A stretch of DNA of 42,002 bases from Dimargaris cristalligena. Its lineage: Eukaryota. The stretch lies in NCBI GenBank assembly GCA_003614675.1, contig ML002322.1, forward strand, positions 1-42,002. The letters are read 5' to 3'. How positions within the stretch are numbered: the stretch's first letter is position 1; every line of letters begins with the position of its first letter. This document shows positions 3,772 to 33,907 of this stretch, piece after piece. Under the pieces are notes generated by a model. The model was given only the letters and a program-made list of their open reading frames with translations, was not told the origin of the DNA and did no database searches. The position numbers were made by a program, and so were the translations under genes.

Positions 3772-6647
3772 CTAATGCCGATGCTTGCTGGCCGCTTTTT
3801 GGCGCTCCTTTTCCAACCGTAACAGTGTTTTTTCGCGGTCCGATATCCGAGGAATAAACTCTTCTGCTTCATTAATCAATCGGTCGATATTTCGCTGGAT
3901 TGCCGCCGCCGCCTCGTGGTCACCTATCGCCATGAATGCCAAAAAGTAGTCATTCGAGACAAAATGTGTTTTTGTTTTACAGGATATACACAACGGGATG
4001 GAGGGAGGGGTAGCTGTCATTGAGTATTATGAAATGGTCGAATCGAATCGAATCCAATTGGGGTTTTTAAATAATGTCAAAACCAATATAGGAGCAATAA
4101 AAAGTGACAGGCGATTATTACTATTTTTGGATTACTTACTGGGAGCAAAAGTGCGGCGCATCCCCACGAGGGCAATATCTTTCGTCGACGGAATCCTGAG
4201 GTTCTCCGTACTTATTTCGTACCCACACTGGGTCATGATATCCTTCACGTAGTCCACGTAAGTTTGGAACCGGGTCTGGCCCGGCCGGGTACGGGTGAAT
4301 TTCCGGCCCGCCAAGTCGTACCGACAGCAGGGGATGAGTATGATTTTGGAATGGTAGATCCCAGAGCGGGCCGCCATGATCGGAATCCAGGGGATCAGCT
4401 CATCAGCGTGGTTGCCGACGAGCCATTCGGCGGAGGCAAAGTGGGTCGTCGGAGGGGATAGCGTCTGGGCTTCGAGGTGTGTGGTCGGGCCGTAGAGAGA
4501 CCAGACTTTGCGTTCGCTTTGGTCGATGCCGTAGCCTGGGATCCCTTCGCTTGTAAGTAAGTGGACGAGAAATCCGTTACCGCAGCCCAGGTCCACGTAT
4601 TTGGTGGGGAATCTGGGGCCATTTGGAAGTGTAAATATAATAAAAAAGCCGAAACAAAGGAGGTAAGGATTTGGGGCCAAATATTTAACCACCTAAATAG
4701 GACGGTCTCGGAGTATATAGCACGGCGTAAAGGTCCCAAGGGCCCAATACCGGTATCTGAGTTCCCACCTTTATCGTTAAAATTAGACCTAGTAAGCTAC
4801 TTACGAACGCTCGCTGGGATACCGCTGCCATATTCCCAATAGCCAGCTGGCAATGCTAATGTCCTCGGGTATAAATTTTTGGGCATCCGTTTTTTCGGGC
4901 CAAGCCTGGACCCAGTGGTTAGCGTATTTGGCTTTAAGGGACGCCCGGATCTCCCGGTACGTGTCGTGGTCCAACAGCACGTCATAGTGGGTCCGTTTGC
5001 GGTACCCGCCGGTCAAGTGGGAGATGCTCCACTTGTTGAGTTTGGTCAACAAACTGAGCCAGTAGGATGCTTCCTTGTGGGTCATGGAAAAGTGGGCCAG
5101 GTCCGTGATTTGGAACTCAATGCTTAGCGTACCGATCATGGGCGGTCTGTACGGAAAGAAGAACCGATGGTTGCGAAAGAACGATTATAGGAAATAGGTA
5201 CCAGTGAGATTTTCGGCTTAAACTTAGTATAAGGTATGTAAATATCGGAAAGTCGAATCAATACAATTTTAGGGTAATGGTACCTAAGCCGGTGATCTGA
5301 ATAGTGTTTTAAAATAAAATATGTGGTGGTTGAATGTATGTGCGAATGACTTACAAATGATCAATATCCTCGGTAACGTCTGGCTGAGAGTCACAACTAC
5401 TCGAATCGGGGGCAAGTCTTCGGTAAACAAAGGCAAACGACGATACCTAGATATCACAATATAACAACAAATTGGCAGGGGAGTGGTTATGAAATTCTAC
5501 GGTTAAAACCACGAATGGAGCTGCAGATGGCCGTATGGGACGCATGTGAGCACTTCTTATTCGTTCGCCCCAGTAGCAAAAGTATAGAACTCGGTCATTT
5601 CCTTCTAAAGGTAAAACAAGCGAGAATGATCCAAACAGAATACTAGGGACGTACCTTGGGATAAAAGAAGGGTAGTTGTTGCAGATCTCGATTTTCAGGA
5701 GGTAAGTTGGGCGAGAAATGGGTGCGGGATTCTGAGTATGAATGGAGGTTATTCAGTAGTATATTAATTAATTAACATAACTCTATTTAATTAAGGTGCC
5801 TACCCTGTAAGGAAAGTACTGAATTTCGCCGATCATCAGCAGAGTTCATTATAGGCTTATCTACAAGACGAATTTGGGTCATCCGGTTCTCGTTTATCCC
5901 TATACCTATACTATACTTACCGTGCTCGCCGACTAGAATTTCGACGGTTTCGTTCACTACATTATCCTTGGTGATCCGTTTAGGGTTTAGATTTCGAACT
6001 AGGCGACGGACAACCTGTAGGGTTTCGGGGGGTTGTGACCCGTATATCAGAGGTGCTGTACCAAGGGCCTGGCTGCCCGGTGCTGAGGTTTCATCCGCTT
6101 GGACAATAGCCTTATCCACTGGCGGGATCACCAATTGGGGTTCTACAATCCAGCGGTCCTATCGAAATATTTCGTCGGTATTTATAGGGTTCAAAATAGC
6201 GCTTAGTCCGGAGGGTTAGTTAGGACCATTTTCACCTGGTGGCTTTGCTGGCATGTTGCTAGCTCCACCGGGCTCCTCGCCGGGAGGTCAGGGCTCGTGT
6301 TTTCTAGCAGTACACTAATATATGCTTGCCATTTTTATATATTGTTGTTTAATGTCTGAGTAGACGTAGGGGCCTCCCTTCCTATAACTTACCATGACCT
6401 GTTGGAAGTGACTCGCACTAACCGGGGTTGGGCAAGTCAGGTACGAGTACCAATTGAGTTGGTTTATACTTTTGCACGGCACCGTTGGGGACCACTGGGT
6501 GGGTTTGACACCGGCCTTAGCGTCTTCCGTCTCGGGCTCTGGGCACCCAACCCGCCGTTGAACAACCAGCGGTCGGAATTGTTTAATAAGGGCATTTCGG
6601 TAGGCCTCCTGGGCGGCGTCGGACGACGGGTTAGCTGGGGTCGCCAT
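3772..6647 (-). CDS. TRM44: tRNA(Ser) Um44 2'-O-methyltransferase, 7 exons (6647-6393, 6158-5921, 5731-5655, 5446-5355, 5146-4805, 4612-4140, 3923-3772), ~542 aa
   Basis: Motifs WPEKTDAQKFIPEDISIASWL, YVDLGCGNGFLVHLL, WLVGNHADELIPWIP, IPCC and LRIPSTKDIALVG are typical of Trm44. All introns are GT(AAGT/ACGT)...AG and exon phases join into one frame. Confidence 0.92.
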
Positions 6648-7713
6648 GGGGTAAAGCCGCGGCAGAAATAGTCGGATAGCCAAAGGAAATGGGGTAAAAG
6701 ACCGTGGGTTCCAGCGGTGAATGAGTAAGTACATGCGACCAGTACATGTAAGGGAGAGGAAATCCGACAAGTAGTAGGGTGTGGGGGTATTGTAAGTGTG
6801 ATTGGGGTGCATCCACGGGCTGGGTTGCCAACGGGGAAAGGGAATGCAGCAGTTAGCTAGAGGCCTCACCTTGGCTCACTCAACCCGCCTCTTGTGCTAC
6901 CGAATTACGGGAGAGCGACTTCCCCGTAGCTCTTAGTTTATTTCTTTAATTTTTTTCGGCGGCGCTTCGTAAAGTGGTGAACCAACGAGGTCGCTCACTC
7001 ATTCCTTCAGTTCGGAAGCTCCTATTTGCTCCCTGTCGCTGCTTCCCTTCCCAACCCTCCTATTCGAAACCTTATTAGTCCGGTTTAAACCGGAGCTCCT
7101 TCAACAGGTCAGACACCACCCCACCTTAGTAAGTCTGCTTCAACCACCGCCGCTTTGTCCCTTTTTGGGAAGCCTTAATTTACGCATATTAGCCATTTCC
7201 CCGCCTGGACTCGCGATAGATTAGCAAATTAATCTGAGGTGGAGGAAAGATACGGGGAGAAGCAGCGAGTAGATTAGGTGGGGGGAGACCCCCACGTGAC
7301 CCACATTGACCAGTAGTATTATTATCTCTCTTGCCCCAAAGCCCCACCAACCCCAATCCAGTCCCCGCAACTGGCCCTCTCTCTCTGGGTCTCCCGGCGC
7401 TGGCTCTCCGGAGACGAGAAGAGGCGAGGCAGCTGCTGCCGAACCACAAGGACTGCGAAATGCAATTATAGTGAAAGGGGGCAACAAGGCCTGGAATTCC
7501 ACCTCTCTTGTTAAGCAAGGTTTCACCCCACGCTATCTATCTGTTTATGACTCAGTCTCGTTTCTAACAAAGTGTCTTCATTATACCTATTGTTGTTTGC
7601 TTTTCCATATCTATTCTCCTTCCTTGAATCAACCGCTTTACTTATCTGACTTTCCTCGCCTGTGCTGGAATCTAAGCCCCCCTCTCGTTGATCCCACCCG
7701 AACAGTCACTGTC

Positions 7714-16285: not shown

Positions 16286-18594
16286 TTAATAATACTCGTG
16301 CTGCAGCGCATATTTTTTCTCGGTCGACGTGGACGTTTCACTGAACTGGCTTCCGGCATTTCGATCTAAAGCAATGGGGATGAACACCTTCATCTTTAGG
16401 AGGGTCCGCCCCCCTGGTATCCGCTGGTTCAATTCTGCTTCGTTGGGTATCGATTCAAAAGTCACCTAAAAGCCCGCCTCAAAATACCAATATCCATATA
16501 CAATGAATTGCGTTAGTCCATCTAATTACGCCTGGGTAATTTCTCCCTCCTCTTCCCCAGAAAAATGCTTTTAAACCAGAGAGGTTATATAGACTCCAAG
16601 TCCCCCATATCCCCCTTAACTAAGGCAAACCTTCCTTCCTTCTTTCCTTCCGGGATCCTAGCAAATGTCTACTTACCGTGGAGTTAAGTTTGTTGTACAG
16701 CAGCCACTCATCCTTCACCTCCTTTAACGATTTTGTCGCTTCCACAGCAATTGCCCATCGACCCCCACTACTCTTCTTCACCAGAGTTTCCAAGTCCTGC
16801 ATGGCTAACTGGGCAAACCCCACCGCCACGCCATTGTGGTCACCGTTGTGGGCATCCAGGGCCAAGTAGCGTTTCGCACAGCCCAGCAGGAAAGTCCGGC
16901 CGTCTTTGATATAGCGGCGCAATTCAGTGGTCATAACTTTGACGTCGTCGGAATGTTGGGCCTGGAACAGACCGAAAATAATGTCGTACTCTTCCGCGAC
17001 GCCGATGAGCAGTTTGGCCACGAGGCCGGGCGAGGTTTTTTGGGGCATTGACACCCGAATGGCGATCCGTTGGGCATCGGCCAGAGCGAGTCTTTTTAAA
17101 AAAGTACCCCCCCCCCAACCCACGTATGAAACACATATAATAAAATAGAAAATAACATTAACCAAAGTGGATATGATGAGATGGTAAATTAAGGATTGCG
17201 GAGTCTGAGCACCTGCGCAAATATTGATCGCTACGGTTGTCCGTTGGTAGTGTTAGATGAGAGTAGTCATTTCGGGGATACTAATTTGGATTACACTTAC
17301 TTTGACAGAATGCGGAGCATACCAGGCGTCAGGTCTGGGGGGCGGTGCGTAGCATCGTTGTACTTCCATTTGGGCAAAATATTTTCGAGAATGTAGTCGT
17401 GGATGCCTGCTGCTTGGGACAAATACAGCATAGCCTTGTTTTCGAGGAAACATGAAAGAATCGTACCCAAATGTCGAAAGTAATATAGAGGGGTCAGTAA
17501 TGCTTTTTAGGATATCGAGTTGGGAGATGATGAGTACATGGTAAAATTTTGGGGGCTGTTGTCGTTCATGACTAGACACGACTTTTTTTATAAAAAACAT
17601 AATCTTAGTCGGCACACGGACACCCGTTTCCTTAAATACATATATAAATGATCGTATATTTATTTACCTGCTTAAATTTCTTGATATCCCCTTCAGCAAT
17701 GACCCGGTCCCGTTCCGAAATGGTCAGGGCGTCCACCATGCGGAACGCCAGCGTCGACAAGGCCAGCCCGTACGCGAGGAGCGTAAAGGCCGTTTCAAAG
17801 TACACGGAATTGGAGGCAAATTTACCCCGTTTGAGTTTATTCGCCCACTGGCCCAGCCGGGTGGAGTCATCGAGCCCGCTAAGCAAGGGGGATTTCCAAA
17901 TAAACATTTCGGTGCTACCAGTATCGGGTCCGCCGGTAGGCACGGTGGAACTTACGGGGGAGGCCGTATAAGTGGGGGCCGCGCTGGAGGTCGACGATCG
18001 ACCAACCCCGATAGCCTGGAGCATTCTGGTCGACCGACTACTGCTGAAACTACCCCCCCGCACCGTAGGCGGCGGCTGCTGATGTTGCTGTTGCTGCTGC
18101 TGCTGGTGATGGTGGTGGACAAACTGGTCCGGGTCTAAAAAGCCCGGCGTTGGACCACCACCATTGCCCCCCTCAGAGGAGGGGTCTTCTAGTTCCTCAT
18201 CACTGCTCACGGTCATGCCAAAATCCTCGCAGTCTATTACCGAACTGGCCGTGGGGGTCTTTGACCTCCCATTACTGCTGCTACTACTGCTGCCGCCGCC
18301 ACCGTTTCGCCCGGCCTGGTCCAATCGACTCTGTTCGTAGTAGTTGACACACCAGAAGAGGTGGGGTAGGTACGCCTCGATGCTGGCTACCAGTTTGGAC
18401 ACATCAGCCGGGTTCGGAGTGCTTTGGGGACCTTGGCGGTAGACGCGGAGGGCCTCCCGCATGCGTTCTCGGTGGGCCGTGGCTTCGGATAGCGGGTGGA
18501 TAACTCGGGTATCCTCGGGATTGTCGCCCTTGACCCGGAAAATACGGAGAAACGAAGCGGATTTGGTCTTGGGGGTGAGCAGATAGAAATGCAT
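16286..18594 (-). CDS. palC: PalC/Rim23-like BRO1-domain pH-signalling protein, 4 exons (18594-17668, 17434-17301, 17091-16677, 16465-16286), ~551 aa
   Basis: BRO1-like segments (IEAYLPHL, FIWKSPL, FETAFTLLAYGLAL, LSQAAGIHDY, LALADAQRIAI, GVAVGF, NSTVTFESIP, IPGGR) and a C-terminal di-aromatic YALQHEYY* characteristic of PalC. Canonical GT-AG introns keep frame. Confidence 0.85.
18078..18118 (-). repeat. CAY/CAR trinucleotide repeat encoding poly-His/poly-Gln in palC exon 1
   Basis: HHHHQQQQQQQHQQ in the translation. Confidence 0.8.
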
Positions 18595-19629
18595 CGCTAG
18601 GAATGAGGGGATTGGGTGTGTCTATAGATAGATATATAGATATGCGTGTATGTGTATGGCATATAGGGCTAGGGCCACCAACGCAATAGCAAGAACACCA
18701 GAGAAGGAATAGTGAGAAGAGGACTGAAGTTAAGAAGGGCCGTTAGGGTTAGTTTAGTGAGAGAGAAGGAAATAGAGAGTGTGGCTATACCAGTAACTAA
18801 GTAAGAGAAGGAATAGGGCAGGTGGAATGGGAGAGAGAGAGATAAGTTAAAGTATAGGGACGGGCCGGCGGCGACCATACATCGGCAGCTGCTATATCTT
18901 CCCAGACTGACCGGTTTTTATGCACCCAGCGGTATAACAAGCGGGTGGGATCAGGGCCAGGTTCCTTCGAAATATCCCCTTATGGGTCACTGCCAATTCA
19001 GAGACAGCAATCATGCCAAACTCCCTCGCTAACGATCACTTTTGTATCTTGCCGGGGATTTTCTTATTTTCTGGGCCATTGTGGCGAATAGATCACCCGA
19101 CTTTGTGCTTCATCACCAATTTTTATCATACGGAACTCCTTCCGTTTGGATAGTGATTTTCAAATATAATCCCCCCACCTCCCCTTTGGCCTATTCCTGG
19201 GTTATGAAAGAGTGGCTGCTGGTCCAAAGAACGGTCCATTTAACCCCCAAGACCCCCCCACCCTCTTATGGTGGCGTTTCGTTGCCCGGCTCGACTAAGT
19301 GAGTCAGTGAGTGAATGGGTAAATGAATGAATGTTGCGCAGCCCTGGTCTACTCGTATAAAGCATACGCCCCAAATCAGTCTACTGTGGGCACTTCACTC
19401 GAGTTGGTGCGTCCGCATAATGTCGACACTGGTGGACCAATTATGGTTGGGATTCCCCGAATTGGCCTGTTTGGGCATAATCGACCACCAAGGACAAGTT
19501 GCAGTAGTACGCGAATGAAATTCCAGGCTCGCTTCAAAAAAATAAAACGACTCGTACATATAATTTACACTTTATTTTGTCGAATGATGGAGCAACACGT
19601 TATACAATAAAAAAACAGCATCAAGTAAG

Positions 19630-21639
19630 TTATGGTCGGGGGGATGATTCGCTCTTCGCGGTCAAGGTGAGTTCCTCCCGCATAAAGGCGTTGAACTGGT
19701 CAGGCTGTTCCACCATGGAGCTATGTCTAGCACCCGGGAGGTAAGTCACCCGGGATCCGGTGGGCAAGTGCTGGATCAGTTCCTCGGCCCCGCCGTGGTT
19801 GATCCAGTCGTGTTCGCCGTAGACAATGGTCACGGGGGAGGTGACGGCAGCCAGGCGGTGGGGTGTCAGGGGTGCGCGCGCAAAGGCATAGGGGGTCAGA
19901 AGGGCGGTATAGGCGTATTCGCCCGACGCCGGTTGCGCGGCCAAATGGTAAATGTATTCCAAGTACCGCTGTTGGGCCAGGTCGGCGGAGTGGCTGGTCA
20001 GTGTAGTAGTTGTGGTAGTGCCCTCGGCGTAATTACAATGGTCCTCCGGTTCAAGTGAACGGCTACTGCCGGTGTGCTGGGAAGATTGCGGTCGGCTATT
20101 ACTGGAGAATCGTGTGATCAGAGTAGGGCCCAATGGTCCAGTGGCCCGTACAAACCACTGGGGCGAGAGATTCCATCGCCAAATATGGTAAAAAAAGGGA
20201 CCGTGCAACCGGAGACTGCCTAAGAAACTCTCGGGCGCACCGGGTAAGTGAAGACGGGCTTCGGGATCGTTGTCCAGGGGTACCAATCGGAAGCCCGCGG
20301 GTACTTTAAAGTCCGGTGGAAGATCCGCGGCATGGTCTTGGACACCATCGTCGGAAGGGGCGGTGTCCAACATGACTTCGGCAACGGGGACGGCAGTCGA
20401 CTTGGGCCCGCCCACCATAAGTTCCATCGGATCCATCATGTCCGCCACTGGGGTTTCCGGCGAACCATGGGCTTGGTTAGGGGTATCCATCGACTGCCCG
20501 GGGGTGCAATTGGTAGGTCGCCAACACTTCGGGGCAGTTGGTCGTTTAAAGGCCCAGCGCGGTAACGGACAGTTAAAGTTGCCTTGCAGAATCTCCCGGA
20601 CCCATGCGTCGTAGCCCGGCGGGGTGGGCGATACTCCCATGGGACTAAGCAGGACCAGTCGTTCGACCCGGTGGGGGTAGCGGTTGGCGTAGAGGGCGGC
20701 CATGTACGCACCGAAACTGTGGGCCATAAGGTACATCTGGGGGATGCCCATGGTTAGGCGCCACCTTTCTAGCGCATCAATAAAAAAATCCTCCGTTTGG
20801 GCCACCACCTCCCCTTTAGAGGTACTTCCACTCTCGTCACCCAATTCCGAATCGGTCTCCGACTCCGATGAGGAGGAACCGGAAGACGATGCCGAAGGCG
20901 AACCATTCCCAGGGCGGACCCACGGGAGGGTCTCGGAGCGTGAACTTAGTCCCATCCCAATCCAGTCGACACTGTATATAACGCGTTGGGGGGTAGCCTC
21001 CGCCAGCGGAGCGTAATTGCGAAAATAAATGCCCAGCCCACCCCCGAAGCCATGCAACATGACGATGGGCGCGGCGGCAGAGGTCACAGTATGGTGATGG
21101 CTTGCTGGCACGTCATGGGTCGACTTAGCAGCCCTACTAGTGCAAGTCGAGGTGGGGACGGGTCGATGGATTGCCAGGGTCCGGATGGTCTGACCTCCAC
21201 CAATATCAACGGACCCTACATACGCCTTGGGTGCGGACTGGGGCGAATGATAAATGGCGAGGCGGCCGTGGGGGCCTAAAGGCGAAAGCCCCGCCGCCGT
21301 ACCATCGTCCAAACTGCCGGTGGTTTCCTCTCCATGGGAGGTGGGGTCACCACTGTGGTCATGGTGGAGATCAAGCAGCGCATCTAGATGCTCCTGCAGA
21401 CTAACGGTAGGGTCGAATAGGGGAACAGTTGACAAAAGGGAGCGTTCAGCTAATGTGGCCTTGTCGATGGTGGAGGGCCAGTGACTCTGCCAGGTCGGGA
21501 GATAGTTGTACAACGTGCCAATCGAGGCCGTTAAAGACGGGATACGGAATGACCAGCCCGGAGAACCGGACGGGCTTTCGGTAGACGGGTTGGATGAGTT
21601 GGCGGTTGTTAATGGCTGGGTTAGAGCAGTGGCTGCCAT
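19630..21639 (-). CDS. ABHD4/ABHD5 (Cld1/Ict1-like) lipase/acyltransferase, paralog 1, 669 aa
   Basis: MLHGFGGGLGIYFRNY, VDWIGMGLSSR, EDFFIDALERWR, AHSFGAY, YPHRVERLVLLSPMG, SPQWFVR, SGEYA, YGEHDW, ARHSSMVEQP. Confidence 0.9.
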   Translation of the reverse strand: MAATALTQPLTTANSSNPSTESPSGSPGWSFRIPSLTASIGTLYNYLPTWQSHWPSTIDKATLAERSLLSTVPLFDPTVSLQEHLDALLDLHHDHSGDPTSHGEETTGSLDDGTAAGLSPLGPHGRLAIYHSPQSAPKAYVGSVDIGGGQTIRTLAIHRPVPTSTCTSRAAKSTHDVPASHHHTVTSAAAPIVMLHGFGGGLGIYFRNYAPLAEATPQRVIYSVDWIGMGLSSRSETLPWVRPGNGSPSASSSGSSSSESETDSELGDESGSTSKGEVVAQTEDFFIDALERWRLTMGIPQMYLMAHSFGAYMAALYANRYPHRVERLVLLSPMGVSPTPPGYDAWVREILQGNFNCPLPRWAFKRPTAPKCWRPTNCTPGQSMDTPNQAHGSPETPVADMMDPMELMVGGPKSTAVPVAEVMLDTAPSDDGVQDHAADLPPDFKVPAGFRLVPLDNDPEARLHLPGAPESFLGSLRLHGPFFYHIWRWNLSPQWFVRATGPLGPTLITRFSSNSRPQSSQHTGSSRSLEPEDHCNYAEGTTTTTTLTSHSADLAQQRYLEYIYHLAAQPASGEYAYTALLTPYAFARAPLTPHRLAAVTSPVTIVYGEHDWINHGGAEELIQHLPTGSRVTYLPGARHSSMVEQPDQFNAFMREELTLTAKSESSPRP

Positions 21640-24358
21640 TGTGTAATGGACTTAATAAATTGTAATATTTGAAATAAAAGCAGTCCAAGGCAAAGTGAAG
21701 GGAATATTAGGTGTAACCGGTATAAACAGGGGCTGATAAGGAAGAAGTATATTTGACTGGTATTTAGGTAGAGCGAGGACGAATGAGTTTAGTAAGCGGT
21801 ATAAATAGGAGAAAAATACCATGCACGGTCCCTAAGCGGTTCGTGCCGGTCTTTTATAGTGTGCGGGGTCATTGTCCACCCCTTTACCAAAATATAAATG
21901 ATTTGTCATTTGAGTAACTTACCCTTTTATATTCCGGTGGTATTTGGTGATAATATTGAGTATACGTAATACACTCAAACTTGACAATGCAGGCCCAGTC
22001 GACTCCAATACAATTCCTTTAGGTGGCGCTGTACATTTCCAGCCGAAGAAGTAGCGGAGGCCATCCCTTGCCATCAACTATATCAGCCTAAATTGATCAG
22101 TATCCGCCCAGATTACAACGTATTTGTCCAAAGTAGAAGCCGATGGGAATTCATCACATCCGTCATCTGCGTCACCCAAGAACCCCTCTATTGGCCCCAC
22201 GCTCCGATTGGGGGCAGTGGTCAATTGTACTCTCGTCTTCCCTAGTCGGTATCTATCTGTACCACCGACATCTTCAGTTGCCTTGGTGTCATTATCGAGT
22301 AATATTGGGCCAGCCGTATCGGCAACACCAACCAGCAACCCAATCTATATTTATCACTCAATCGTATAAGAAACCTTTCACATGCCAAGTACAGAAAATC
22401 TCCCCGCGACTTGGGCGTGGTGCACCAAGGATTTTCCGGTGTCAGCCTAAAAGTGCTTCGTGTTTCCTATTTCTCATCAGTCAATGGCGGATTGTATTCT
22501 TGCTAGAGGTCATTTTGGATATATTTTGAACTCAGACTACCCCCCTCCACCCCAATAATGGAAATAACCAGTCTGGGCAACCGAATTCCCAGACCCGCCT
22601 CTTGCCTTTATTGAAAGACTTATTAGCCTGGTTACGACATTTGACCATATTGAAACGGCGGTGAGGGTCTCGTGTGGATCATCCACAAGGTTCCTCCACA
22701 ATAATGGCAGCTGATGGCGGATGACCAGGGTCTGGGCTAGAACGGTCACAACCCGTTAGGCATATCGGTCGAACCTCGGTGGCCGTTATCGTGGCCGATT
22801 TAATCCCCGTACCCTAGGCTGTGGGTTTCTGGTTTCTGGGTTACAGTTAATATAGTATCGCAGCAGATGAGAAGTGTACAGGAAAAGTACTACTGGCCTA
22901 TGCATTAAGTGCAACAGGTCTAGCACCATCGGGCGGTCTCCAGATCCCTTTAATCATTGGTTAGTTTAGCGACCGAGTGGTTGGGCGGGGTAAACGCGAT
23001 GGCCGACCTCGGGCTATTTAAAAATGATTCTGAAACACGCTTCGTTACTCCAAAGTAATATATCACCGGAGGCTTTGGCTGTAGTGTTGCTATCATTGTT
23101 ATTACTATTATTTTGTAAATAGATGAATAATTATATTACGTTATCGGTATCTTTAATTTGGTGGATAGAATGTATCTCCCCCATTAGTCCAATTGTAGTA
23201 ACTCAACAACCGGAGAATGGGCACTTTCCCTCGGAATTGGTCGGTAATAGTGAAAGTATGTATGAAGACATTCGGATACTGGCATTGCTCGTAACGCATT
23301 ATCATTAGACACTTGGACTCTCATCGACCCACATCTATTAGTAAATGTATTTTAATTCTAATGAACCACATCATTGGGTACCTGAAATTCACACTCACCT
23401 AATCAGGTAAATATGGGCATCCTAACATTGTCGGCTATTTACTTTATTATTCAGACTGTATCTCCTCGCCCTGCCGCATGTACCGTTCACAACTACACAG
23501 CAAATTTCCCTATTGGCCGATAGTCTATTGCCACACCCGCTCTTAATCCCTCTATATTGTTCGGGCATATTGTCCTATTGTTTAGGGCGTGCTCCTATAA
23601 AATAATTGATCAATCCACAACTTACCCTGCCTAACTTTACTCTATGTCTGGTAGGCAATGGTTGCGTTTGATTGCCTCAAAGTCTTTTTTTTTCTGCTCG
23701 CGTCCTATGGCAACTGCTATATTTGCGACAATCCCTCATCCGTTCCATCCCCACTTTAGCCGAATCATGTAGGCGTCAAAAGGGACAGTAAACGCGCAAA
23801 TGGGCTAGATGCTGATGTGAGCAGGTATTCCCTGTCCAACTTAAGAGGTATATTTAGCCTGAAATCCTGTGGTGCGAAACGGGAAGAAAAAATCAAGACA
23901 GTGCCAAAACAAAATAGAGTCAAGGAGGACACAGAGGCACCGGTGCAAAGGAATTGGTAGCAGCCACTTGAACCTTGTACTACCCACTCGTCAGTAAGCA
24001 GCGTCCACTGCCACCTATTTAGTGACATATTGTAATTTACAAAGTAGTCAATTGAGTAATTGCAGCAGCCCGTCCTTAACCGCGTGCAATAAGTAGACGG
24101 CTGCTGCAACCGGTAGTACTGGGAAGGGAACGAGCAGTGGCTAGCTGTATTTAAGCAGCTGTGGGCCAGAATCCCGACTCTGATATGTACCGTTGCTATC
24201 GATTCCTTCGAAACGAGTGGATTTACTACCACACCCGATGGCACCACCTCTTAATAGCTTCCGCTAATTAATCATTCACTACCATATTTTATATACTATT
24301 AATAATTGGTACTCAAGTATTTTTGATCATACACCCATTCGCATCTAGTCTTTCCATA

Positions 24359-24691
24359 ATGGTTCGCTTGGTAAATTTAGCCTTATTCATCGGATGTATC
24401 GTCATTACCTTCGGCGACTATGCCGTTCCTTTGCCGACCGGCCGACATGGGGTGGACACCAATCCCCACTTGGATAAGCGATCCATGCTTAACGTACTCT
24501 TGTATCTTAAGAACAATCGCGATACACCCGAAACCACCACTGCGGCCAATCTGGTCGAACGGATTCCAATGGAGAGCCCGGCTCACGGTAGCCCTGCTCA
24601 GATACAAGCCAAACCAGTTTCGGCGTGGCGGGCGATTTTTAGCTGTTACCCTTCCCTGTTCCATCCCAGGCGCAGGGGATGCCGTATTTAG
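24359..24691 (+). CDS. Small secreted pre-pro-peptide, paralog 1 (110 aa; signal peptide, Kex2 KR site)
   Basis: Hydrophobic N-terminus; TNPHLDKR|SMLNVLLYLKN; clear paralog at 28761-29093; TATA-like TTTATATA at ~24288. Confidence 0.8.
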   Translation: MVRLVNLALFIGCIVITFGDYAVPLPTGRHGVDTNPHLDKRSMLNVLLYLKNNRDTPETTTAANLVERIPMESPAHGSPAQIQAKPVSAWRAIFSCYPSLFHPRRRGCRI

Positions 24692-25169
24692 ACCGTATTC
24701 AGGGCTGGAGGAGGTGAAGAAGGGGATAGGGTTTTTGCCCAAACCTTCCACGCTGGAAGATTTATATATATATATAATATATATACTGGAAATTACTTCA
24801 TATACACTGGCTTAGTTCCATACGGGCCCTACCTCATAAATATATTTCGGATTGTGATTTCTTTTAGTAATCATTAATATTTTGCTCGCCATCGCTTTCC
24901 AGGTTCGACAAACTTCCCTACACACGAATTGAATCGTATAACGCTAATTGATACTAGAATACCGAGGGAATATTCCGAACTTAACTTGAGGCGTATCGGC
25001 TATAATCATCAAATAGGTACCGACATTACGAACCTCCACTATTAATAGTAACCCCTCAGGCCTCGGTGGTATATTGGAGTTTAACGGGAATACCATCCAG
25101 GATAAGTTCACTCCTATAGGATATTGTCATTTATTTCCGAAGTTGATAGTCCATTATGCTTGATACATT

Positions 25170-27800
25170 TTCTATTGTCTCTCCTGCTTTATCTATATTT
25201 GAAATCCCAGATAACTTCATCAGATGTCAACCCAATGAAACACCTAATGTTGAAACACAGGAGATATCAATCTGATTGTTTACAACCAATGTCCTGCTGA
25301 TCAACTTGAACAAACCCACACACAACCATTTACATCACTACTTCATAAGATGTAATAGTGGGGCCTATGGATGTATGACGTGTCTGGTATTTGGCAGACT
25401 GTTCATTCACAATGGTTTTCTTTGGAGGGGTGTCTGGAATTATTTGATGAACCTTGATCCAGATCCTCCTTGGGTGTAAATTAATACCTCCATTTGGGAT
25501 GGCGGGCTATAGTTTATAGTGTCAGGCAAGATTGTTCCTGAAAGTCCGATAGAACTATTCATCAATTGTGGTGTGGCCAACCCATCCAATTAAACTCCTT
25601 AGGAAATTGTAATCAGTGTCAAAATTTAGGCTAGACCGGCAAGTACAACTAAGGTGTAGTTAAACTAACTGGGGTAGAAAGCGGGGGGCTGGGTGGCTCA
25701 ATTTTATGTGTTTTTTTTTTCTGCACAGGTCCTATAGTAACTCTAGAACATACCTTACATGGTTTGTTGTCATAGGCAACAAATTGCTTTGTTTTAATGA
25801 CACATAATTGGTTTTTAGTTCTATACTGAGTAATGTAAAAAATAAAGGGGGGCCAATTATAGTATAAAAGAGTATTTATTATCCCAAAAAAATTGGGGGT
25901 GGGTAGAGGGGGAGGTAGGGAATATGTAGTGCCATCTGGAGGTCGGCACTTAACCCCAGACTATGGATGGCCAGTCTTTGTTATCAAAGGGCGGAATATA
26001 CCACAATATATAACAGCAGTATCATTCCCGCCACTTTCCCATTAAAACTGCCACCTAGACTGTGGCATATACTAAGAATACCGAAAATCTTATTAAATTT
26101 TACACATATAGTTTACATTAAAAAGTCTGACTTATTTCTTGGTGGATTCTTTTCCCTTCCATTTTACTCCATTTGCTGATTATTTTCTACATCCTTTTCT
26201 TTACACCCAGCAGCCTCTAAGGCCCACAAAATAGTTACATAAGTAACCAGTAAATTCTTGCTTATTTTTTAAGAGAAGAACAATCACTATTTGTTTTATT
26301 TGAACTGATTTTTTATTCCTTAAACTCTACTATGCCTTTTTCTATTGATTTATTATTATTAACATTACTGTTCTTTATTATCTTTCAATAAACTTTTGCA
26401 CCCCTTGTTTATATCCCCATCCTCCATTTATTTTACTGATCATTCACCCCTCCAAAATCCTGCTATGACAGCACCCAACTCTGCCCCAGTCTTATCCAAC
26501 TCTGCAAACCTCCCATCTTCTGCCACCAGGGAGCTGGCCACCACAACTTTAGGCTGTACTGATAAGGAGGCCACTGCCTCCTTATAAATTCCAAAGGCTA
26601 CTAGCAATAGGCTGGACATCCCAGGTAGTATAATTACAGGGTGATATTGTCTATATTTGATAAAAACTAGTAAGTTGCTGATATAGTTAGCACTGCTTTG
26701 TATCCCTATGCTATTATTATTATCACACTACTATATCACCCATGGATTTGAGTATGGCCAACTGGCAGGAATACTATTGGAGCAACAGTCTATTTTTTGT
26801 TTTACAACCTACACTTAATAAACCTGTCTTTGGGAGCTCTAATTATGAAATGGATAGCTACCAAAGTAAGACCTCCCTCTTAATGATAGAATGGGATGTG
26901 CCATATAGCCTACTATTTAGTGCAAGGGAATATGGAAACAAAAGAGGAGGCTTATACAGTCATAGGTCTGATGAGTCAATAGTTAAAAGTAAGATAAATT
27001 GGCCCAATCATCTCGGATATTTGTGACTGCTCTATGTGATTGTTACCTGGGTTAACCACTCTTAGTCCATCAAGAGTTCTAAGGATAGGCTTCTAACAGT
27101 AGGTGGGGCTTAGGCTCAGCCAAGTGGGCTACTAGTGCTAGGATGGGGGCATAGTACTAACCAATAAAGGATAGATGTAAGTTAATATCAGGGATGTGCA
27201 GCAGGTACACTTACTAGTCAGTACAAGGGGAATGAGCATATAGAGTTTTTTGAGGTAAACTGGGGGATAAGAATAAGCTAAGGCATGGAACCAGCCCCAG
27301 TGGGGGCCTGGTTATATATACATAGGGACAGCTCCAGAGGGAGGTCCTAAGGGAATACTACTAAGACTAAGGTATAGAAGTAAAGAATCCAACCAGATGA
27401 ATTTGCATTGGGAAGACTCTCATGGGAACTGGAAAAGTCTTGGATCAGCAAGTTGAGTGTTTAGGGTGCTAGTGTTGGGGTCAAATGGGTGGGGTTATAT
27501 AATAAAGGATGCCCCATAGTACTGGGGGTGACTATGGGAGGGACAATATGGCTTTATAAGGCCAGAATGGAACAGGCAATCATTAGGTCTGGGTTAAGTC
27601 AGATTAGGAGGGCTGACAGTGATAAAAAAGAGCTAGATATTTGCCTAATTTTAACACTAATAGATATTGTAGCCATGTGGGCAAATCTTCACTTGTGTTA
27701 GTCATGGTACTTAATTGATCAGCCCTAAAAAGGGACTCTCCAGATTTTTGAATATCATTGCAAATGCTGAATCAACCACTAGCTAGGGTCTATTATTGCA
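25170..27800. mobile_element. AT-rich, CpG-depleted degraded transposon region
   Basis: Very few CG dinucleotides, no credible ORF, contains repeat copy C. Boundaries approximate. Confidence 0.6.
27045..27620 (+). repeat. Degenerate repeat family, copy C
   Basis: CCTGGGTTAACCACTCTTAGTCCATCAAGAGTTCTAAGGATAGGCTTCTAACAGTAGGTGGGGCT...GCAGCAGGTACACTTACTAG is colinear with the reverse complement of 1290-1830. Confidence 0.85.
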
Positions 27801-28568
27801 ACTGGTATGTCGGGGATTTGTATTTTCCACTAGTCTTATATTAGTATTTTTTGCTACATTTCTACTGTAGGGGGTACAGCACGATATCCCCTCCCCTCCT
27901 CAGCTACATGCTGCTATCAATGGCTGGGACTAAATCCCTTTAATTCAATCGACCTTCTGCCAATACATAAAAGGAAATCTGTGGCTTTTATCACCAGTGG
28001 TAATGGTTACAGCCGTGAGACCCTCACATGTGTTGGAATTCCAGGCACCTAATTTGGACAGAGGGAGGGGGGCCCGCAGAGCATTGTCATGATGGTCCGC
28101 CTGAACATAGCCTCCATGAGTTCAAGAATAGAAGACTGAGCAGGGTTCTTCAACGTCCCCCTTTCATCAGTACGCATTTGTATATAAAGGGGAGAAAAGA
28201 AAGGATATGACCATGGCCATGTCGGCTTCGTTCTTTACTAAGCTATTCGTAGCTCCACATGCTGCAATTCCAAGAATAATAATCGAGAAGGGAAAAGGGA
28301 AGGCCCAGGGTGGGTTGGGGAGTACAGGGAGAGTGGTACGAGGGAGTCGACAAGGGTCAATGGATATTTATACTCCCAACTACATTATACCTTCGCTAAG
28401 TTTATATCCAATATTACGGGCAGCGCCCCCAAATACACAGTATATTCGTAGTGGTCTCACCCTTTAAACAATATGAGTACCAAACTCATCTAGGTGAATG
28501 AACACATGGTCAAGGGGATGGATACTCTGCCTAGATGAGAGGTGTCCCAGCGAAACAGCTGTCTAGTT

Positions 28569-28578
28569 TATATAAAAG
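28569..28578 (+). promoter_or_regulatory. Canonical TATA box upstream of secreted peptide paralog 2
   Basis: TATATAAAAG about 190 nt upstream of the ATG at 28761. Confidence 0.55.
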
Positions 28579-28760
28579 GCACGACTAGTATACCTATACT
28601 GAGATATATCCCCTCCAAACTCACCCTCAATCACTCTGGTTAAACTAAAGACTACTCGACAGTAGCCCGTGTATTGCATTGCCTACCGTTCTTTTTATCG
28701 AAGTTTCATTTTGGCCTTCCCCTCCCCTGCTTACTTCCATTGCCAAATCCTGAATTTACC

Positions 28761-29093
28761 ATGGTGCGAACAATTGCGCTCCCATTGATTCTTTTGGGCC
28801 TCGTTGCTTTCAACATCCCCGCCATGGCCGCGTCCGCGAACCAGGGGACCTCGGCAACTAACCCTCGGCTGAACAGGCGCTCGATGATGCATACGGCCAT
28901 GTACATGAAAAACGAACTTGATCATCGCAACTCTCCCATAAGCACCCCCCGAACCGGCGAGGCCTTAAAGAAGACGCCAGGGAATAGCGACAATATCCGA
29001 TCCACGACCCAGCCGCCGATATCCTCATGGTGGTCTTCCCTCAAAAACTATCCCTATTTCAACCGCCAGAAGTACGAAGAGCGGCGTAGTTAA
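28761..29093 (+). CDS. Small secreted pre-pro-peptide, paralog 2 (110 aa; signal peptide, Kex2 RR site)
   Basis: ACCATGG start context; MVRTIALPLILLGLVAFNIPAMA signal peptide; TNPRLNRR|SMMHTAMYMKN; paralog of 24359-24691. Confidence 0.85.
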   Translation: MVRTIALPLILLGLVAFNIPAMAASANQGTSATNPRLNRRSMMHTAMYMKNELDHRNSPISTPRTGEALKKTPGNSDNIRSTTQPPISSWWSSLKNYPYFNRQKYEERRS

Positions 29094-29518
29094 AGCAGTC
29101 TCACTCATTCAAACCGCTTGACTTATCCATTTAACCGGAGAAGGCCTAGATATCCGTGCTCCGCGTTCGTTTGTGATGCCATTGGCGACTCACAGTTCAT
29201 TTTAAATTGATATTTAGTATACTCATTTTAGTAAAACAAATAATCATTCACTTCTAAATAAACAGAGCGGTTTCCTAAATGAAAATAGCAGTACCGTTCG
29301 GCGGGGATTGAGCGTTATAGCAATGTCAACAAAGGCATCTTGCAGCATACAGCATACAAACAATAATAAAAAGAAAATATAATTACAATAACCGACGCTC
29401 ACTCATTTTCCAACTCTACCCTATTCCGTGGTAATGCAAAATACCAGAAGAAAAGTCAAAATAAAATTGAGAGGATGGAAACGTGGATTAAGGAATACGC
29501 GGAGAACATGCAAAATGT

Positions 29519-31543
29519 CTATTCCCCATTAATTTCAGTTGGGGTTTCTTGGCCGCTAAGGTGTGGGCCCTCCTTCATCTCCTGAATCAGGAAAGCATTA
29601 AAGTCCTCGGGGTTTTCCACCATGAGATTATGGCCTGCGTCGCCAATATGAACGATTTTCGTGGGGACTCGCATCCGAGCGGCTGCTGCCTCAGCCCCCC
29701 GGTAGTCCATCCAGTCCGTTTCACCGTACATAAAAACGGTAGGCACTTTCAGATCGTGGAGGCGACTCGCAAGGGGGTTTCGGGCGATCACAAACGGGTG
29801 GGTCAGGATGGTGATGGAATACTCGCCCGATCCGGGACGGGTAGCCAAGTGGTACAAGTAGTCCGAGAGGGCGGTGCGTTCCGGTTTAGCCAGATATTCA
29901 TAACGACTGATGTACTGGTTCACTAGGTAAGAGCCCAGTGGGCCTGAATTGCGCACAAACCATTGCGGGGAGGACTGGGAACGCCAGCAATAGGCCACCA
30001 GTTTGAACATAAACTGGCGGCTCCCAAACAAAGGTTTTGGGCCGGCGGGCTTCGCCGGCGGGGAAGGGGATTCGGCGGTGGCATCGTCCACGTCCGTATC
30101 GTTGACCAGGGGAGTATTCACATCGGGATTTGAATCCAGCTGGGTGTCAGCCGTGAGGTCGATCCCTGTATACTCCTGCGTTTGTTTTGCAATGGCGGCC
30201 TGTACTTCCGGTGGCGGCAGTGGGCGGGCTTGTTCATCCGCAGGGCCCGTGTTGGGCTGAACCAGTGGCACTTCCGACCCCGGTAACCAAGTGGAGGCCT
30301 TGGGGCGGGTGGGGCCGAAATCTGGGAGGGCGTCGGCGCCGCTGCCTTTCATAAGTTCGTCCACCCAGGGAAGGAACCCCTCGGGAATTTCGGGCACGCC
30401 CATGGGCGAGGCCAAGATGAGTTTTTCGACCCGCTCGGGGTAGCGCAGGGCATAGAGTGCTGTCATGTAACCGCCGAAACTATGGCCCAATAGGACCATT
30501 TTAGAAATGCCCATGGCTTCCCGCCAGCGTTCCAGAGAATCCACAAAGAACTCTTCGGTCTCACGGACCTGGGCGGCCGAACCTTCGTCGGTTCCCCAAT
30601 GCACTGGCTCTTCGGTGGCAGCATTAGCGGGAGTTTCGCGTTGTTTATGCCAGGGTAGGTGAGTGGGGCGAGCACTTAGGCCCATACCCAGCCAGTCGAT
30701 TCCGAACACCCGACGACCACTATGGTTGGCGAGGTGCTCGTAATTGCGGAAGAAAATTCCTAGACCGGTACCAAAGCCGTGGGCTACTACCAAGGTGGGG
30801 CGATCGGCACGCTCCTCTAAGGTGGCGGCATCGTCCGAGTCAATCATAAGCGTCCGGACGAATAGGCCGTCACCAATATCGACAGAACCCAATCGGGCCA
30901 CCATGTCACCGTGGGGTCCGGGGCCTCGAACGCCGTTCGACTCCAACTCACTGGTGGTTTGACTGGCGAAAGACCGGCGGCTGGAAGCAGAAGTAGGGGA
31001 GCCCGAGGCGGCTGGACTACTGGGACCCTCCGAGGAGGTCTTGTTCACATGTTTGAAAGGTGATAAACGGGTTAGCAGACCTGAAACGAGACCCGTGGCG
31101 TGGCGTTGGCGACCTGTTGGGCACTTGCCAGGGGTGGAAGAGGCAGGGTCCTCCTGACGCCCCCCCGCGCGGAGTTGGGCCAGGTAGGCCTCTAGGGGCT
31201 CGGAAGGCCGAAAAATAGGGAGACTCGATAGAAGTTGTACTTCAGCATGCCGGGCCTTAAAATGGGTCGACGGCCACCGACCGGGCAATGTGGTAAGGTA
31301 ATGGTGGAAGGGCATGGACAGCTTGGGTAAGCCGGCGCTAGGCTGGGACTCGCCGAGGGACGCCATAGGGGGCACTGAGAGTGAGGAAAATGGATATTCA
31401 CTGGAAACAGGGGGGGAATACGAAGCCGAAATGAAACGCAGCTTAGAAGCGTGTGCCGTTCTACGAACGGGCTGAAGGGATGAGTAGACGGACAAGCGGT
31501 GAATTGGCTTGGGCAGGTGAGACAAGCGAACTACGAGATGCAT
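29519..31543 (-). CDS. ABHD4/ABHD5 (Cld1/Ict1-like) lipase/acyltransferase, paralog 2, 674 aa, possible mitochondrial presequence
   Basis: AHGFGTGLGIFFRNY, IDWLGMGLSAR, EEFFVDSLERWR, GHSFGGY, YPERVEKLILASPMG, SPQWFVR, SGEYS, YGETDWMD, AGHNLMVENP. Confidence 0.92.
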   Translation of the reverse strand: MHLVVRLSHLPKPIHRLSVYSSLQPVRRTAHASKLRFISASYSPPVSSEYPFSSLSVPPMASLGESQPSAGLPKLSMPFHHYLTTLPGRWPSTHFKARHAEVQLLSSLPIFRPSEPLEAYLAQLRAGGRQEDPASSTPGKCPTGRQRHATGLVSGLLTRLSPFKHVNKTSSEGPSSPAASGSPTSASSRRSFASQTTSELESNGVRGPGPHGDMVARLGSVDIGDGLFVRTLMIDSDDAATLEERADRPTLVVAHGFGTGLGIFFRNYEHLANHSGRRVFGIDWLGMGLSARPTHLPWHKQRETPANAATEEPVHWGTDEGSAAQVRETEEFFVDSLERWREAMGISKMVLLGHSFGGYMTALYALRYPERVEKLILASPMGVPEIPEGFLPWVDELMKGSGADALPDFGPTRPKASTWLPGSEVPLVQPNTGPADEQARPLPPPEVQAAIAKQTQEYTGIDLTADTQLDSNPDVNTPLVNDTDVDDATAESPSPPAKPAGPKPLFGSRQFMFKLVAYCWRSQSSPQWFVRNSGPLGSYLVNQYISRYEYLAKPERTALSDYLYHLATRPGSGEYSITILTHPFVIARNPLASRLHDLKVPTVFMYGETDWMDYRGAEAAAARMRVPTKIVHIGDAGHNLMVENPEDFNAFLIQEMKEGPHLSGQETPTEINGE

Positions 31544-32218
31544 GAAAAAATAGTGAGATGGTTGGAATAATGTTTCCGTTATTTATGTCGGGCTTTGGTC
31601 CGGGTGGGCAGGCTAGGGTTTTATAAAAGCCGAGAAGACGGCTTAGGGGCTTTATACCCTTAAAGTGATAAAAGCGACTCTTGAGTGCCAGGCGCACCAT
31701 TATTATCCAGCCACCAGCACTAATTCCAACAAACCGTAGCCCAATGGGTGACGAATCTCTGGAGCCCTCTCCCATTGATGCTCCGATAATTAGGCTTAGG
31801 CCATTGTAAATTCGAATCAGGGGTGGATTAGTCAGCAAATGGGTGACGACGGCAATTAAGGTGGGCCGGGGTGGCGAACGCCCACGCGTCCCTTGGCACT
31901 CCTCCCACTAATACCATCATATATTCTTCACTAGTCATGTGCCTTCGACGACCATTTCCGTATCCGGACAATCCACTATAGCAAGTTCCCTCCTTGGTAT
32001 GTACAAAAAGTGGCCCACTATACCGACTCAACCTGTGTGCGGTGTCGTATAAAATTATTGGATCCCTGCTATTTATCATTTATCGCCAAGCTAGTTACCG
32101 CAGTCATGCTGTACATCCTAAAACGTCCCTCCCATTACTCTTGCCGTTCTAGAAAAACAACAACAAACATTGTTCATTAGCTACGTTAATCGCCAACATT
32201 ACTCAAAAACGAGTTCTT

Positions 32219-33907
32219 TCAAAGAAAACGTTGATTTATCCAATGGGAGTAAGCCATCCCAACCAGGAGGGTTAATGCTATGCGATAATTCCCTTTAACA
32301 AAATCCGCGGCCTGACTGAATAAAGTCCTGTTTTTCCTATAAATTGCATTTACCGCCCGTTCCACCGGCTGGAACGATGGGAAATCGGTTTGAACACCAG
32401 GATCCATGTACTGGTTGGCTTCCAAGGTAATTCCAAGTAAATTTATCGGCACCTGAACTCCCAATTCGCCTTTCGGAGTGAGTGTAAACCAGCGACTACC
32501 AAGATACTGGTACCAACAGGTGGTGCGGTCGGCATTGTAATTATTCAGGCTGACTTCCACTCCCCAGGTATTGGCTAGGAATCGGGCGACATCGGTCAAA
32601 TCTCGGGCAGCAAGGCACTCGATAAACGGCTGTTTTTGACTTTCAAAAGTATGACTGACTCGCTGGTCAGCACCATCAAAGATTTCCACCGTAACCAGCA
32701 GTTCGCTCAGCATTTTCACCCTTGCCGAGTCCTTACGAATGGCAGCAAGGGTTAGAGAAAGGTAAGCCACACTACCGGCCACATGGCTAATGCGGTGTTG
32801 GCCGTTCCCCCCGGCCTCCGACGGTACTGAGCGCAGAAGGGCCGTGAAGAACTTATCCAACTCAGTCGTCCATTGGCGGTGGTGGAGGTACCAGGTTATC
32901 ATGGGAATGGCCAGCTCAATCGATCCCCCCACTGGTGTACGGGCCAGCTGAAGGGCATCCACCGACTCGGGGGCTAGTCGAAGAGCAGTCCCAAAATGGG
33001 TATCCATAGTGGATTGCGGTTCATGTAGCAGGCTAAAGTGGGTTGAGGTGGAGCGGTAAATCCGCTCCAAATACACCATGGTGCCAGCATTGGCATAGGG
33101 CACTAAAGGGAATAGCTGTCTTAGTTGAAAGGCTGATAAGGCAGGAACACTGACTACTCTCCACGTTTCCTTTTGTAAAATCGGAGCGAGGCGATTTGCG
33201 CTGATCAGCTTGAAAAATTCGATAGGCCGGTAGCTCATGGGGTTCTCATCGTCAATCGAGGACTCGTCCAAGGTGTCTTGGTTTAAAGGAATATCCTGGA
33301 ATTCACTCAGAAAACTCCCCATCATCTGAGCCCAGGACTCGAGGCGGGCTAGGGAATAAAAATCGGCCGTAAATTGCAGGATCTGTTGAGCCGAATTCTC
33401 TGGGACTCGTTGGTCCAAGGTTTCCACCGCTTCGAGTGCAATTGATGTATCTTCTAATAATTTGTTAATCTATCAGTTATAATCCGTAATATACAATCCA
33501 ATGTCCCCCACAAGCAAACCCCAATAACACACTGATTAGACAGCCGGCAAATGCATCTCTACACAATTGAAGGCCCCAATGGGCCACAAGGACGGAGCGT
33601 GCCCAGGGCATTTTCGCCCTAGGAATGGGAATACGAGTACGATTCAAAAAGAGGGCCGAGATGACGGGGGAAAATAACTTACTCGATTAGTGATAGCAAG
33701 ATGGTTCTGGACCAGGCTCTGGTTTATAAAATCGGCTTTTCGGACAAAATCACCAATGGACAGCTGGTGTCCGATGGCTACTCGGAGTTCGTAGGGTAAC
33801 AGCTGTTCAATGAGGTTTCCTAGCGTCTCATCGGGTGTTTCGGTGGCCCTTCCAAGAGTAGCGAAGGAAAAAAAGGCCAGAAGGGTCGGAGCAATACAGA
33901 CTTTCAT
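32219..33907 (-). CDS. Secreted hypothetical protein with N-terminal F-box-like motif; exon 1 33907-33683, probable micro-exon from 33618, last exon ~33453-32219
   Basis: Signal peptide MKVCIAPTLLAFFSFATLGRA, GTAAGT donor at 33682, 400-codon downstream ORF on the same strand, TATTTATAAATA about 105 nt upstream. Exact splicing uncertain. Confidence 0.7.

Follow-up and report, generated by a model that had tools for sequence, protein, structure and literature searches.

A paralogous pair of 110-residue candidate secretory pre-pro-proteins with a Kex2-type dibasic motif in Dimargaris cristalligena

Results

Two related small open reading frames

We analyzed a stretch of 42,002 nucleotides of Dimargaris cristalligena DNA (contig ML002322.1, positions 1 to 42,002), referred to below as the window. 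It contains two small open reading frames (ORFs), ORF1 and ORF2, whose products P0001 and P0002 are the candidate secretory proteins considered here:

24359..24691, plus strand: ORF1 (P0001), 110 amino acids and stop; predicted pre-pro-protein, based on translation and paralogy to ORF2
28761..29093, plus strand: ORF2 (P0002), 110 amino acids and stop; predicted pre-pro-protein, based on translation and an unnamed public deposit

An initial annotation, made from the sequence alone, had described two co-oriented ORFs of 110 amino acids starting with MVR, and translation bore out the coordinates, the strand and the lengths. The MVR start is in both ORFs the first in-frame ATG past the upstream stop (stop-to-stop frames 24272-24688 for ORF1 and 28644-29090 for ORF2).

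The two proteins are 30% identical over 105 residues (pairwise BLASTP, E 6e-10). When all 363 six-frame ORFs of at least 50 amino acids in the window were compared with each other by BLASTP, the ORF1/ORF2 pair was found with an E value of 6e-7. The only other non-overlapping matches were a pair of alpha/beta hydrolases and two short matches, one derived from a dispersed repeat (60% over 40 amino acids, 1451-1810 versus 27141-27311) and one located in another frame of the hydrolase genes (55% over 29 amino acids). No third copy of the ORF pair is present within the window. The paralogy proposed at the outset is borne out by the pairwise E value and by a similarity that is specific to the ORF frame (see below); judged from these comparisons, ORF1 and ORF2 are paralogs, probably from an old local duplication, and appear to be two genuine coding genes.

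Alignment of the two proteins delimits an N-terminal and a C-terminal conserved block, which are located as follows (the slash marks the candidate cleavage position):

24458..24514, plus strand: ORF1 N-terminal block, T34-N52 (TNPHLDKR/SMLNVLLYLKN), from the alignment
28857..28913, plus strand: ORF2 N-terminal block, T33-N51 (TNPRLNRR/SMMHTAMYMKN), from the alignment
24614..24652, plus strand: ORF1 C-terminal block, P86-P98 (PVSAWRAIFSCYP), from translation and alignment
29016..29054, plus strand: ORF2 C-terminal block, P86-P98 (PISSWWSSLKNYP), from translation and alignment

Both motifs named in the initial annotation, TNPxLx[KR]R/SM...Y.KN and P[VI]SxW...YP, were thus read in both proteins. 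In P0001 the first of them runs T34-N35-P36-x-L38-x-K40-R41-S42-M43, with Y49, K51 and N52 as further conserved positions of the block; P0002 carries the same block one residue earlier, with RR at 39-40. The positions P86-[VI]87-S88-x-W90 and Y97-P98 have identical indices in P0001 and P0002. Counted by region, identical residues make up 11 of 31 positions in the N-terminal block and 6 of 27 in the C-terminal one, compared with 1 of 27 in the linker and 6 of 25 in residues 1-25, showing that the best-conserved block is the one that contains L-x-[KR]-R.

Coding status and selection

The similarity between the loci was compared in all frames. The two ORF frames together give a local BLOSUM62 score of 92 versus at most 44 for the 17 other frame pairs on both strands, and none of 2000 residue shuffles reached 92 (maximum 57). 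Removal of the first 25 residues left a score of 86 (shuffle maximum 58). At the DNA level, no similarity between the two loci was detected with flanks of 1.5 kb included on each side (blastn, word size 7, best E 0.66). Since the protein similarity is found in one frame only and DNA similarity is undetectable, the protein appears to have been conserved under selection while the DNA was randomised. In a protein-guided codon alignment, identity at codon positions 1, 2 and 3 is 0.39, 0.61 and 0.34, respectively, with position 2 the most conserved; these values are somewhat biased because the alignment was built on the protein. Exactly 110 codons were retained by both copies, with starts and stops aligned. 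The purifying selection claimed initially is therefore supported at the level of the protein sequence by the frame-specific similarity, the conservation of codon position 2 and the loss of detectable DNA similarity, the data being one pairwise comparison of two sequences. The ratio of nonsynonymous to synonymous substitution rates (dN/dS) between the paralogs would carry no meaning, since at a protein identity of 30% the synonymous sites have reached saturation.

The composition of both ORFs is coding-like. A codon-usage log-odds score, for which seven long, Pfam-matched ORFs of the window served as the training set, is 0.028 for ORF1 and 0.086 for ORF2, and the five other frames score negative at both ORFs. 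The GC content is 0.53 in ORF1 and 0.55 in ORF2, with third-position GC (GC3) values of 0.58 and 0.69, respectively; GC3 in the Pfam-matched training genes ranges from 0.62 to 0.76. Local GC peaks coincide with the ORFs (0.54 at ORF1, 0.55 at ORF2), and the flanks lie at 0.35-0.45.

Sequence differences from a second study of the same organism (run X5) were also available. ORF1 differs at two positions, 24454 G>A (V32V) and 24592 C>T (S78S), both of which are synonymous third-position changes. As 34% of the possible transitions in ORF1 are synonymous, both changes would be so by chance with a probability of about 0.12, and they lend only weak support to coding. Among the differences listed for this run, none lies inside ORF2.

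A signal-peptide-like N-terminus

Both proteins begin with a segment that resembles a signal peptide, as the initial annotation had claimed:

24359..24415, plus strand: ORF1 residues 1-19, signal-peptide-like, with MVR, core L4-F18 and T17/G19 at -3/-1; from hydropathy, cleavage site placed by the -3/-1 rule
28761..28829, plus strand: ORF2 residues 1-23, signal-peptide-like, with MVR, core T4-F17 and A-M-A at -3 to -1 before A24; from hydropathy, cleavage site predicted

A hydrophobic core of 14-15 residues directly follows MVR in both proteins, with maxima over 12 residues on the Kyte-Doolittle scale of 2.84 in P0001 (from residue 7) and 2.82 in P0002 (from residue 5). Small residues stand past the core, T-F-G before D in P0001 and A-M-A before A in P0002. 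Cleaved signal peptides classically have this arrangement of a short hydrophobic core followed by small residues. Among the 75 ORFs of the window that start with ATG and have at least 60 codons for amino acids, only these two carry a strongly hydrophobic stretch of 12 residues within the first 30 residues. No second hydrophobic segment was found in either protein, the maxima over 19 residues after residue 30 being 0.42 and -0.71.

The candidate Kex2 site

The candidate site for the convertase Kex2 is L38-D-K-R41 in P0001 (24470-24481) and L37-N-R-R40 in P0002 (28869-28880). Within the same set of 75 ORFs, Lx[KR]R at residues 23-60 occurs in these two alone. In published work on Kex2-processed pro-domain (K2PP) proteins, Arg at P1 is described as a requirement of Kex2; Lys or Arg is favoured at P2, Leu or a different aliphatic residue is favoured at P4, and Asp is unfavourable at P3 (PMC8528282). 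The Kex2-type site suggested initially agrees with this preference in that both copies have a dibasic pair with Leu at P4. A K2PP candidate is, according to the same work, a secreted protein with KR, RR or LxxR in its first half, preceded by disorder-promoting residues (PMC8528282). LDKR (38-41) and LNRR (37-40) are aligned, lie in the first half of the 110 residues and follow residues 21-37, which were modelled without structure and with a predicted local distance difference test score (pLDDT) below 50; the motif part of this rule is thus found in both proteins.

The predicted mature part

Cleavage after the dibasic site would leave mature parts of 69 amino acids in P0001 and 70 in P0002. The mature peptide of about 70 amino acids that had been predicted is consistent with these lengths; the claim that its N-terminal helix is amphipathic was not supported, since on the Eisenberg scale the helix has low hydrophobic moments of 0.26 and 0.15 and is not clearly amphipathic. 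The linker had been described as rich in Ser, Thr and Pro; the S+T+P content of the mature parts is only 0.25 and 0.31. P0001 has two cysteines in its mature part and P0002 none, and none is conserved, so that the multi-cysteine pattern of Cys-rich small secreted proteins is not found. Internal-repeat scores of 23 and 19 do not stand out from those of shuffled sequences (mean 20 and maximum 33 for the first, mean 22 and maximum 34 for the second); the description of the pair as free of a Cys-rich pattern and of internal repeats was accurate. The N-x-S/T sequon is absent from both mature parts, the net charge is basic, and a second dibasic group lies near the C-terminus (RRR at 104-106 in P0001, RR at 108-109 in P0002).

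An AlphaFold2 model built from the two-sequence alignment has a mean pLDDT of 53 and a predicted template modelling score (pTM) of 0.19. Helices were modelled only at 2-19, 40-52 and 89-101, which coincide with the predicted signal peptide and with both conserved blocks; those at 89-101 are short and of low confidence. The ESM Atlas model of P0002 is likewise poor (pLDDT 0.52).

Searches for relatives

Pfam returned no family for P0001 and only DUF7096 for P0002, with an E value of 0.18 and 12 bits versus a cut-off of 27. A word-indexed search of 5.8 billion clusters matched P0002 to itself alone and gave no match for P0001. With a two-sequence HMMER profile, four matches at E of at most 0.001 were obtained among 1.84 billion representatives, one of which is P0002 itself. 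The other three are tandem-repeat proteins of 986, 1467 and 1036 amino acids, matched in 9, 5 and 4 stretches, and were rejected as artefacts of summed repeats or low complexity. A profile search of the PDB gave no match at E values up to 10, and none of 242 pattern matches in JGI metagenome contigs was confirmed by tblastn. The best ESM Atlas feature scores (0.80 for P0002, 0.85 for P0001) are below the lead level of 0.9, and shuffled sequences reach the same range; structure matches from the Atlas were disregarded because the underlying model has the low pLDDT given above.

These searches agree with the initial statement that the pair belongs to no recognisable family, as no relative was accepted from Pfam, the PDB, the clusters, the profile, the Atlas or the metagenomes. 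The absence of relatives applies to annotated proteins that a profile of two sequences can reach, since small genes of this kind, as ORF1 itself shows, escape annotation. The pair had also been called undescribed. P0002 is already deposited, as an unnamed singleton cluster in NCBI, UniRef, nr and eukprot and as a product of exactly 110 amino acids, so that the term holds for P0001 alone, whose exact sequence is absent from the collection of 15 billion proteins that was searched.

Genomic surroundings and sequencing runs

The window is eukaryotic in style, with long uninterrupted ORFs and housekeeping domains, among them a succinate dehydrogenase iron-sulphur (Fe-S) subunit, a palmitoyl-protein thioesterase, a BD-FAE esterase, a BRO1-like domain and a DUF3384/tuberin-like domain. 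Stop-to-stop frames of considerable length without a Pfam match are located at 32219-33469 (minus strand, 416 codons), 17632-18621 (minus, 329), 6315-6875 (minus, 186) and 23765-24250 (minus, 161). The features closest to the ORF pair are:

19630..21651, minus strand: alpha/beta hydrolase paralog 1, Pfam Abhydrolase_1 (E 1.6e-20), 673 codons stop to stop
about 25950..27650, strand not assigned: unclassified high-copy dispersed repeat between the ORFs, recognised by contig depth, many joints and loose ends
29519..31543, minus strand: alpha/beta hydrolase paralog 2, Pfam Abhydrolase_1 (E 6e-26), convergent with ORF2 (426 bp between the stop codons)

The open frame of hydrolase paralog 2 extends over 29519-31582 (minus strand, 687 codons stop to stop). 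The hydrolase genes flank the small ORFs, contain long low-complexity insertions and encode proteins that are 31% identical to each other (E 1e-82); the closest relatives with a solved structure are generic members of the alpha/beta hydrolases. The two short matches aside, the hydrolases and the small ORFs are the only paralog pairs in the window, and their similar divergence suggests an old local duplication. A single segmental duplication of a unit of hydrolase and small ORF was considered and rejected: the order and strands (hydrolase minus, ORF plus, ORF plus, hydrolase minus) fit neither a tandem nor an inverted event, so that two or more events, or else a rearrangement, must be assumed.

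In runs X1, X3 and X5 the summed contig depth of the repeat between the ORFs lies between 1e3 and 1e5, and the repeat has no match in Pfam or Rfam. Further copies within the window lie at 59-183, 269-320 and 1546-1844, and 27032-27329 is 78% identical to 1546-1844 on the minus strand. Diverged copies, about 80-90% alike, are found in run X6, which is labelled as a different organism. This run otherwise contains no unique sequence of the window except for two contigs of 151 bases at 24577-24727 and 24830-24980, which are identical to the window and have a depth of 2; they look like carry-over between libraries rather than an ortholog. An (AT)-rich microsatellite is located at 24757-24789, about 70 bp past the ORF1 stop, and was passed over as a repeat in the read comparison.

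No RNA run is listed among the six sequencing runs covered. Contigs of run X1 over 27513-30153, a region comprising ORF2 and the 3' part of the hydrolase gene, have depths of 1192-3975 versus 7-25 in the adjoining sequence to the left and right; in runs X3 and X5 the depth is even across the region. We rejected this block as a sign of expression: the run is listed as "DNA?", the block extends from the border of the repeat into the hydrolase gene, which is encoded on the other strand, and genes cannot be ranked by contig depth. Uneven library amplification is one possible cause of the block.

Discussion

A proposed route through the secretory pathway

The best reading of these data is, in our view, a lineage-restricted pair of small secretory pre-pro-proteins with K2PP architecture. 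A signal peptide of about 19-23 residues would lead to co-translational entry into the endoplasmic reticulum (ER). Behind it would lie a disordered pro-segment of about 17-22 residues that terminates in L-x-[KR]-R, and a Kex2-type convertase in the late Golgi would cut after R41 in P0001 and R40 in P0002. The released product of 69-70 residues would be largely disordered and poor in cysteine, with the new N-terminus SM[LM]xxx[LM]Y[LM]KN. The second conserved patch, P[VI]SxW...YP, would lie near the basic C-terminus, and both patches may serve as short interaction modules; the C-terminal RR(R) (104-106 and 108-109) could be trimmed too. Outside the cell the product may act as an effector, a signal or a wall-associated protein. 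Reading the layout of the two sequences in this way, we consider a secretory pre-pro-protein pair with ER entry, Kex2-type cleavage and release of a disordered product of 69-70 residues to be moderately probable.

Several observations weigh against this proposal, some of them bearing on the cleavage and others on the status of the ORFs. P0001 carries Asp at P3, which is unfavourable for Kex2 in the published account (PMC8528282). The dibasic site lies at the start of the modelled helix 40-52, with conservation on both sides of it, and the hydropathy maxima over 19 residues (2.1-2.2, Kyte-Doolittle) would also suit an uncleaved signal anchor. Because conservation straddles the dibasic pair at the helix start, the site could belong to one uncleaved motif; the proteins would then enter the secretory pathway without Kex2 cleavage, either signal-anchored or sorted to the vacuole or endosome, and TNPxLx[KR]RSM...Y.KN would be one intact binding or sorting motif. 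However, hydrophobic cores of no more than 14-15 residues with A-M-A or T-F-G behind them are what cleaved signal peptides typically show. Both copies conserve Leu at P4 and the dibasic pair, and the helix comes from a low-confidence model (mean pLDDT 53). Uncleaved proteins of this kind are, on balance, rather unlikely.

The remaining points concern the ORFs themselves, ORF1 especially, and would fit relics of the old duplication or decaying copies of which one or both are non-functional. P0001 is missing from the protein collection, no homologs were found in any collection searched, and the selection signal comes from a single pair of sequences. The codon-usage score of ORF1 (0.028) is weak compared with the 0.15-0.26 seen in known genes. 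In run X5 the density of single-nucleotide polymorphisms (SNPs) in ORF1 (2 in 333 bp) is no lower than in the adjoining intergenic DNA at 24692-25953 (at least 8 in 1262 bp), and the ESM Atlas "recognition" value of P0001 is 1886, below the 2300 reached by most known families. Yet both frames are open for exactly 110 codons, and protein similarity was kept in one frame while DNA similarity is gone; by our own estimate, fewer than 1% of random frames of 110 codons would remain open at this composition. Neither SNP in ORF1 changes an amino acid, and peaks of GC and GC3 lie on both ORFs. Loss of function in one or both copies thus appears clearly unlikely.

A more specific role for the two proteins would be that of precursors of a lineage-specific hormone- or pheromone-like secreted signal, with the Kex2-exposed SM[LM]xxx[LM]Y[LM]KN as the receptor-binding end. 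Trimming of the C-terminal RR is proposed, for this case, to finish a cysteine-free, disordered ligand of about 62-67 residues. Such a signal would be of a non-repeat, non-lipidated class, unlike alpha-factor, the CAAX pheromones and the Kex2-processed repeat proteins (KEPs). The flanking alpha/beta hydrolases could take part in peptide maturation, an idea prompted by the observation that the peptide genes and the hydrolase genes around them both form old duplicate pairs. We regard a signalling role of this type as very unlikely.

That the ORFs are first exons or other parts of larger spliced genes, with the 110-residue products as artefacts of unspliced reading, is extremely unlikely: introns are frequent in eukaryotic genes and unassigned ORFs lie nearby (e.g., 24420-24815 in another frame), but the stops of the two copies align with each other and follow basic tails of equal length, P0002 is deposited at exactly this length, the alternative-frame ORFs at the ORF1 locus are likewise absent from the protein collection, and most other large genes of the window are long uninterrupted ORFs.

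Comparison with known systems

The preferred reading, a secretory pair with Kex2-type cleavage, can be compared with several known classes of precursors. Fungal genomes commonly contain small secreted protein candidates that are orphans and have a dibasic pro-site. The pair is one of very many such candidates and a modest lead rather than a discovery. Since the protein collection lacks P0001 although the two paralogs are clearly conserved, small-ORF families like this one are likely to be under-counted.

Three comparisons define the position of the pair. KEPs, which include the precursors of alpha-factor-type pheromones, are defined by three or more internal repeats with Kex2 sites between them (PMC6339444). 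P0001 and P0002 share with them the signal-peptide-like start and a candidate dibasic site that would release a peptide; they differ in that neither has repeats above shuffled controls, and in-silico cleavage at KR or RR gives only three and two fragments, respectively. The two proteins are thus not KEPs, and they are not Cys-rich small secreted proteins either. By language-model features, P0001 lies closest to small, disordered precursors that carry a signal peptide (scores of 0.77-0.85), and the nearest named clusters are animal pre-pro-hormone precursors (urotensin-2B, diuretic hormone class 2 and similar small secreted precursors), with scores of 0.77-0.82. These scores are below the lead level of 0.9 and are often equalled by shuffles, and there is no alignment and no shared family. 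The relation of P0001 to animal small secreted precursors is a resemblance of type, not kinship.

The closest layout is that of the K2PP effectors of fungi, which include SnTox3, ToxA and SIX1, SIX4 and SIX6; a putative Kex2 pro-domain was assigned to about 30% of 120 effectors surveyed (PMC8528282). P0001 and P0002 resemble this class, as it is described there, in the signal-peptide-like start, the short disordered pro-segment, the Kex2 motif in the first half and the single mature part. Both conform to the in-silico K2PP rule in their motif and the disordered stretch before it; membership of the class would further call for processing and a host-directed role. There is no sequence relationship between the pair and the K2PP effectors, and the mature parts of the pair are modelled at low confidence and contain two and no cysteines. 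The mature domains of known K2PP examples, in contrast, are mostly folded and often disulfide-bonded. If the two proteins are made and cleaved as proposed, they would add a cysteine-free, disordered member to the secreted Kex2 pro-domain proteins of fungi, and their two short conserved modules would be candidates for contacts with binding partners.

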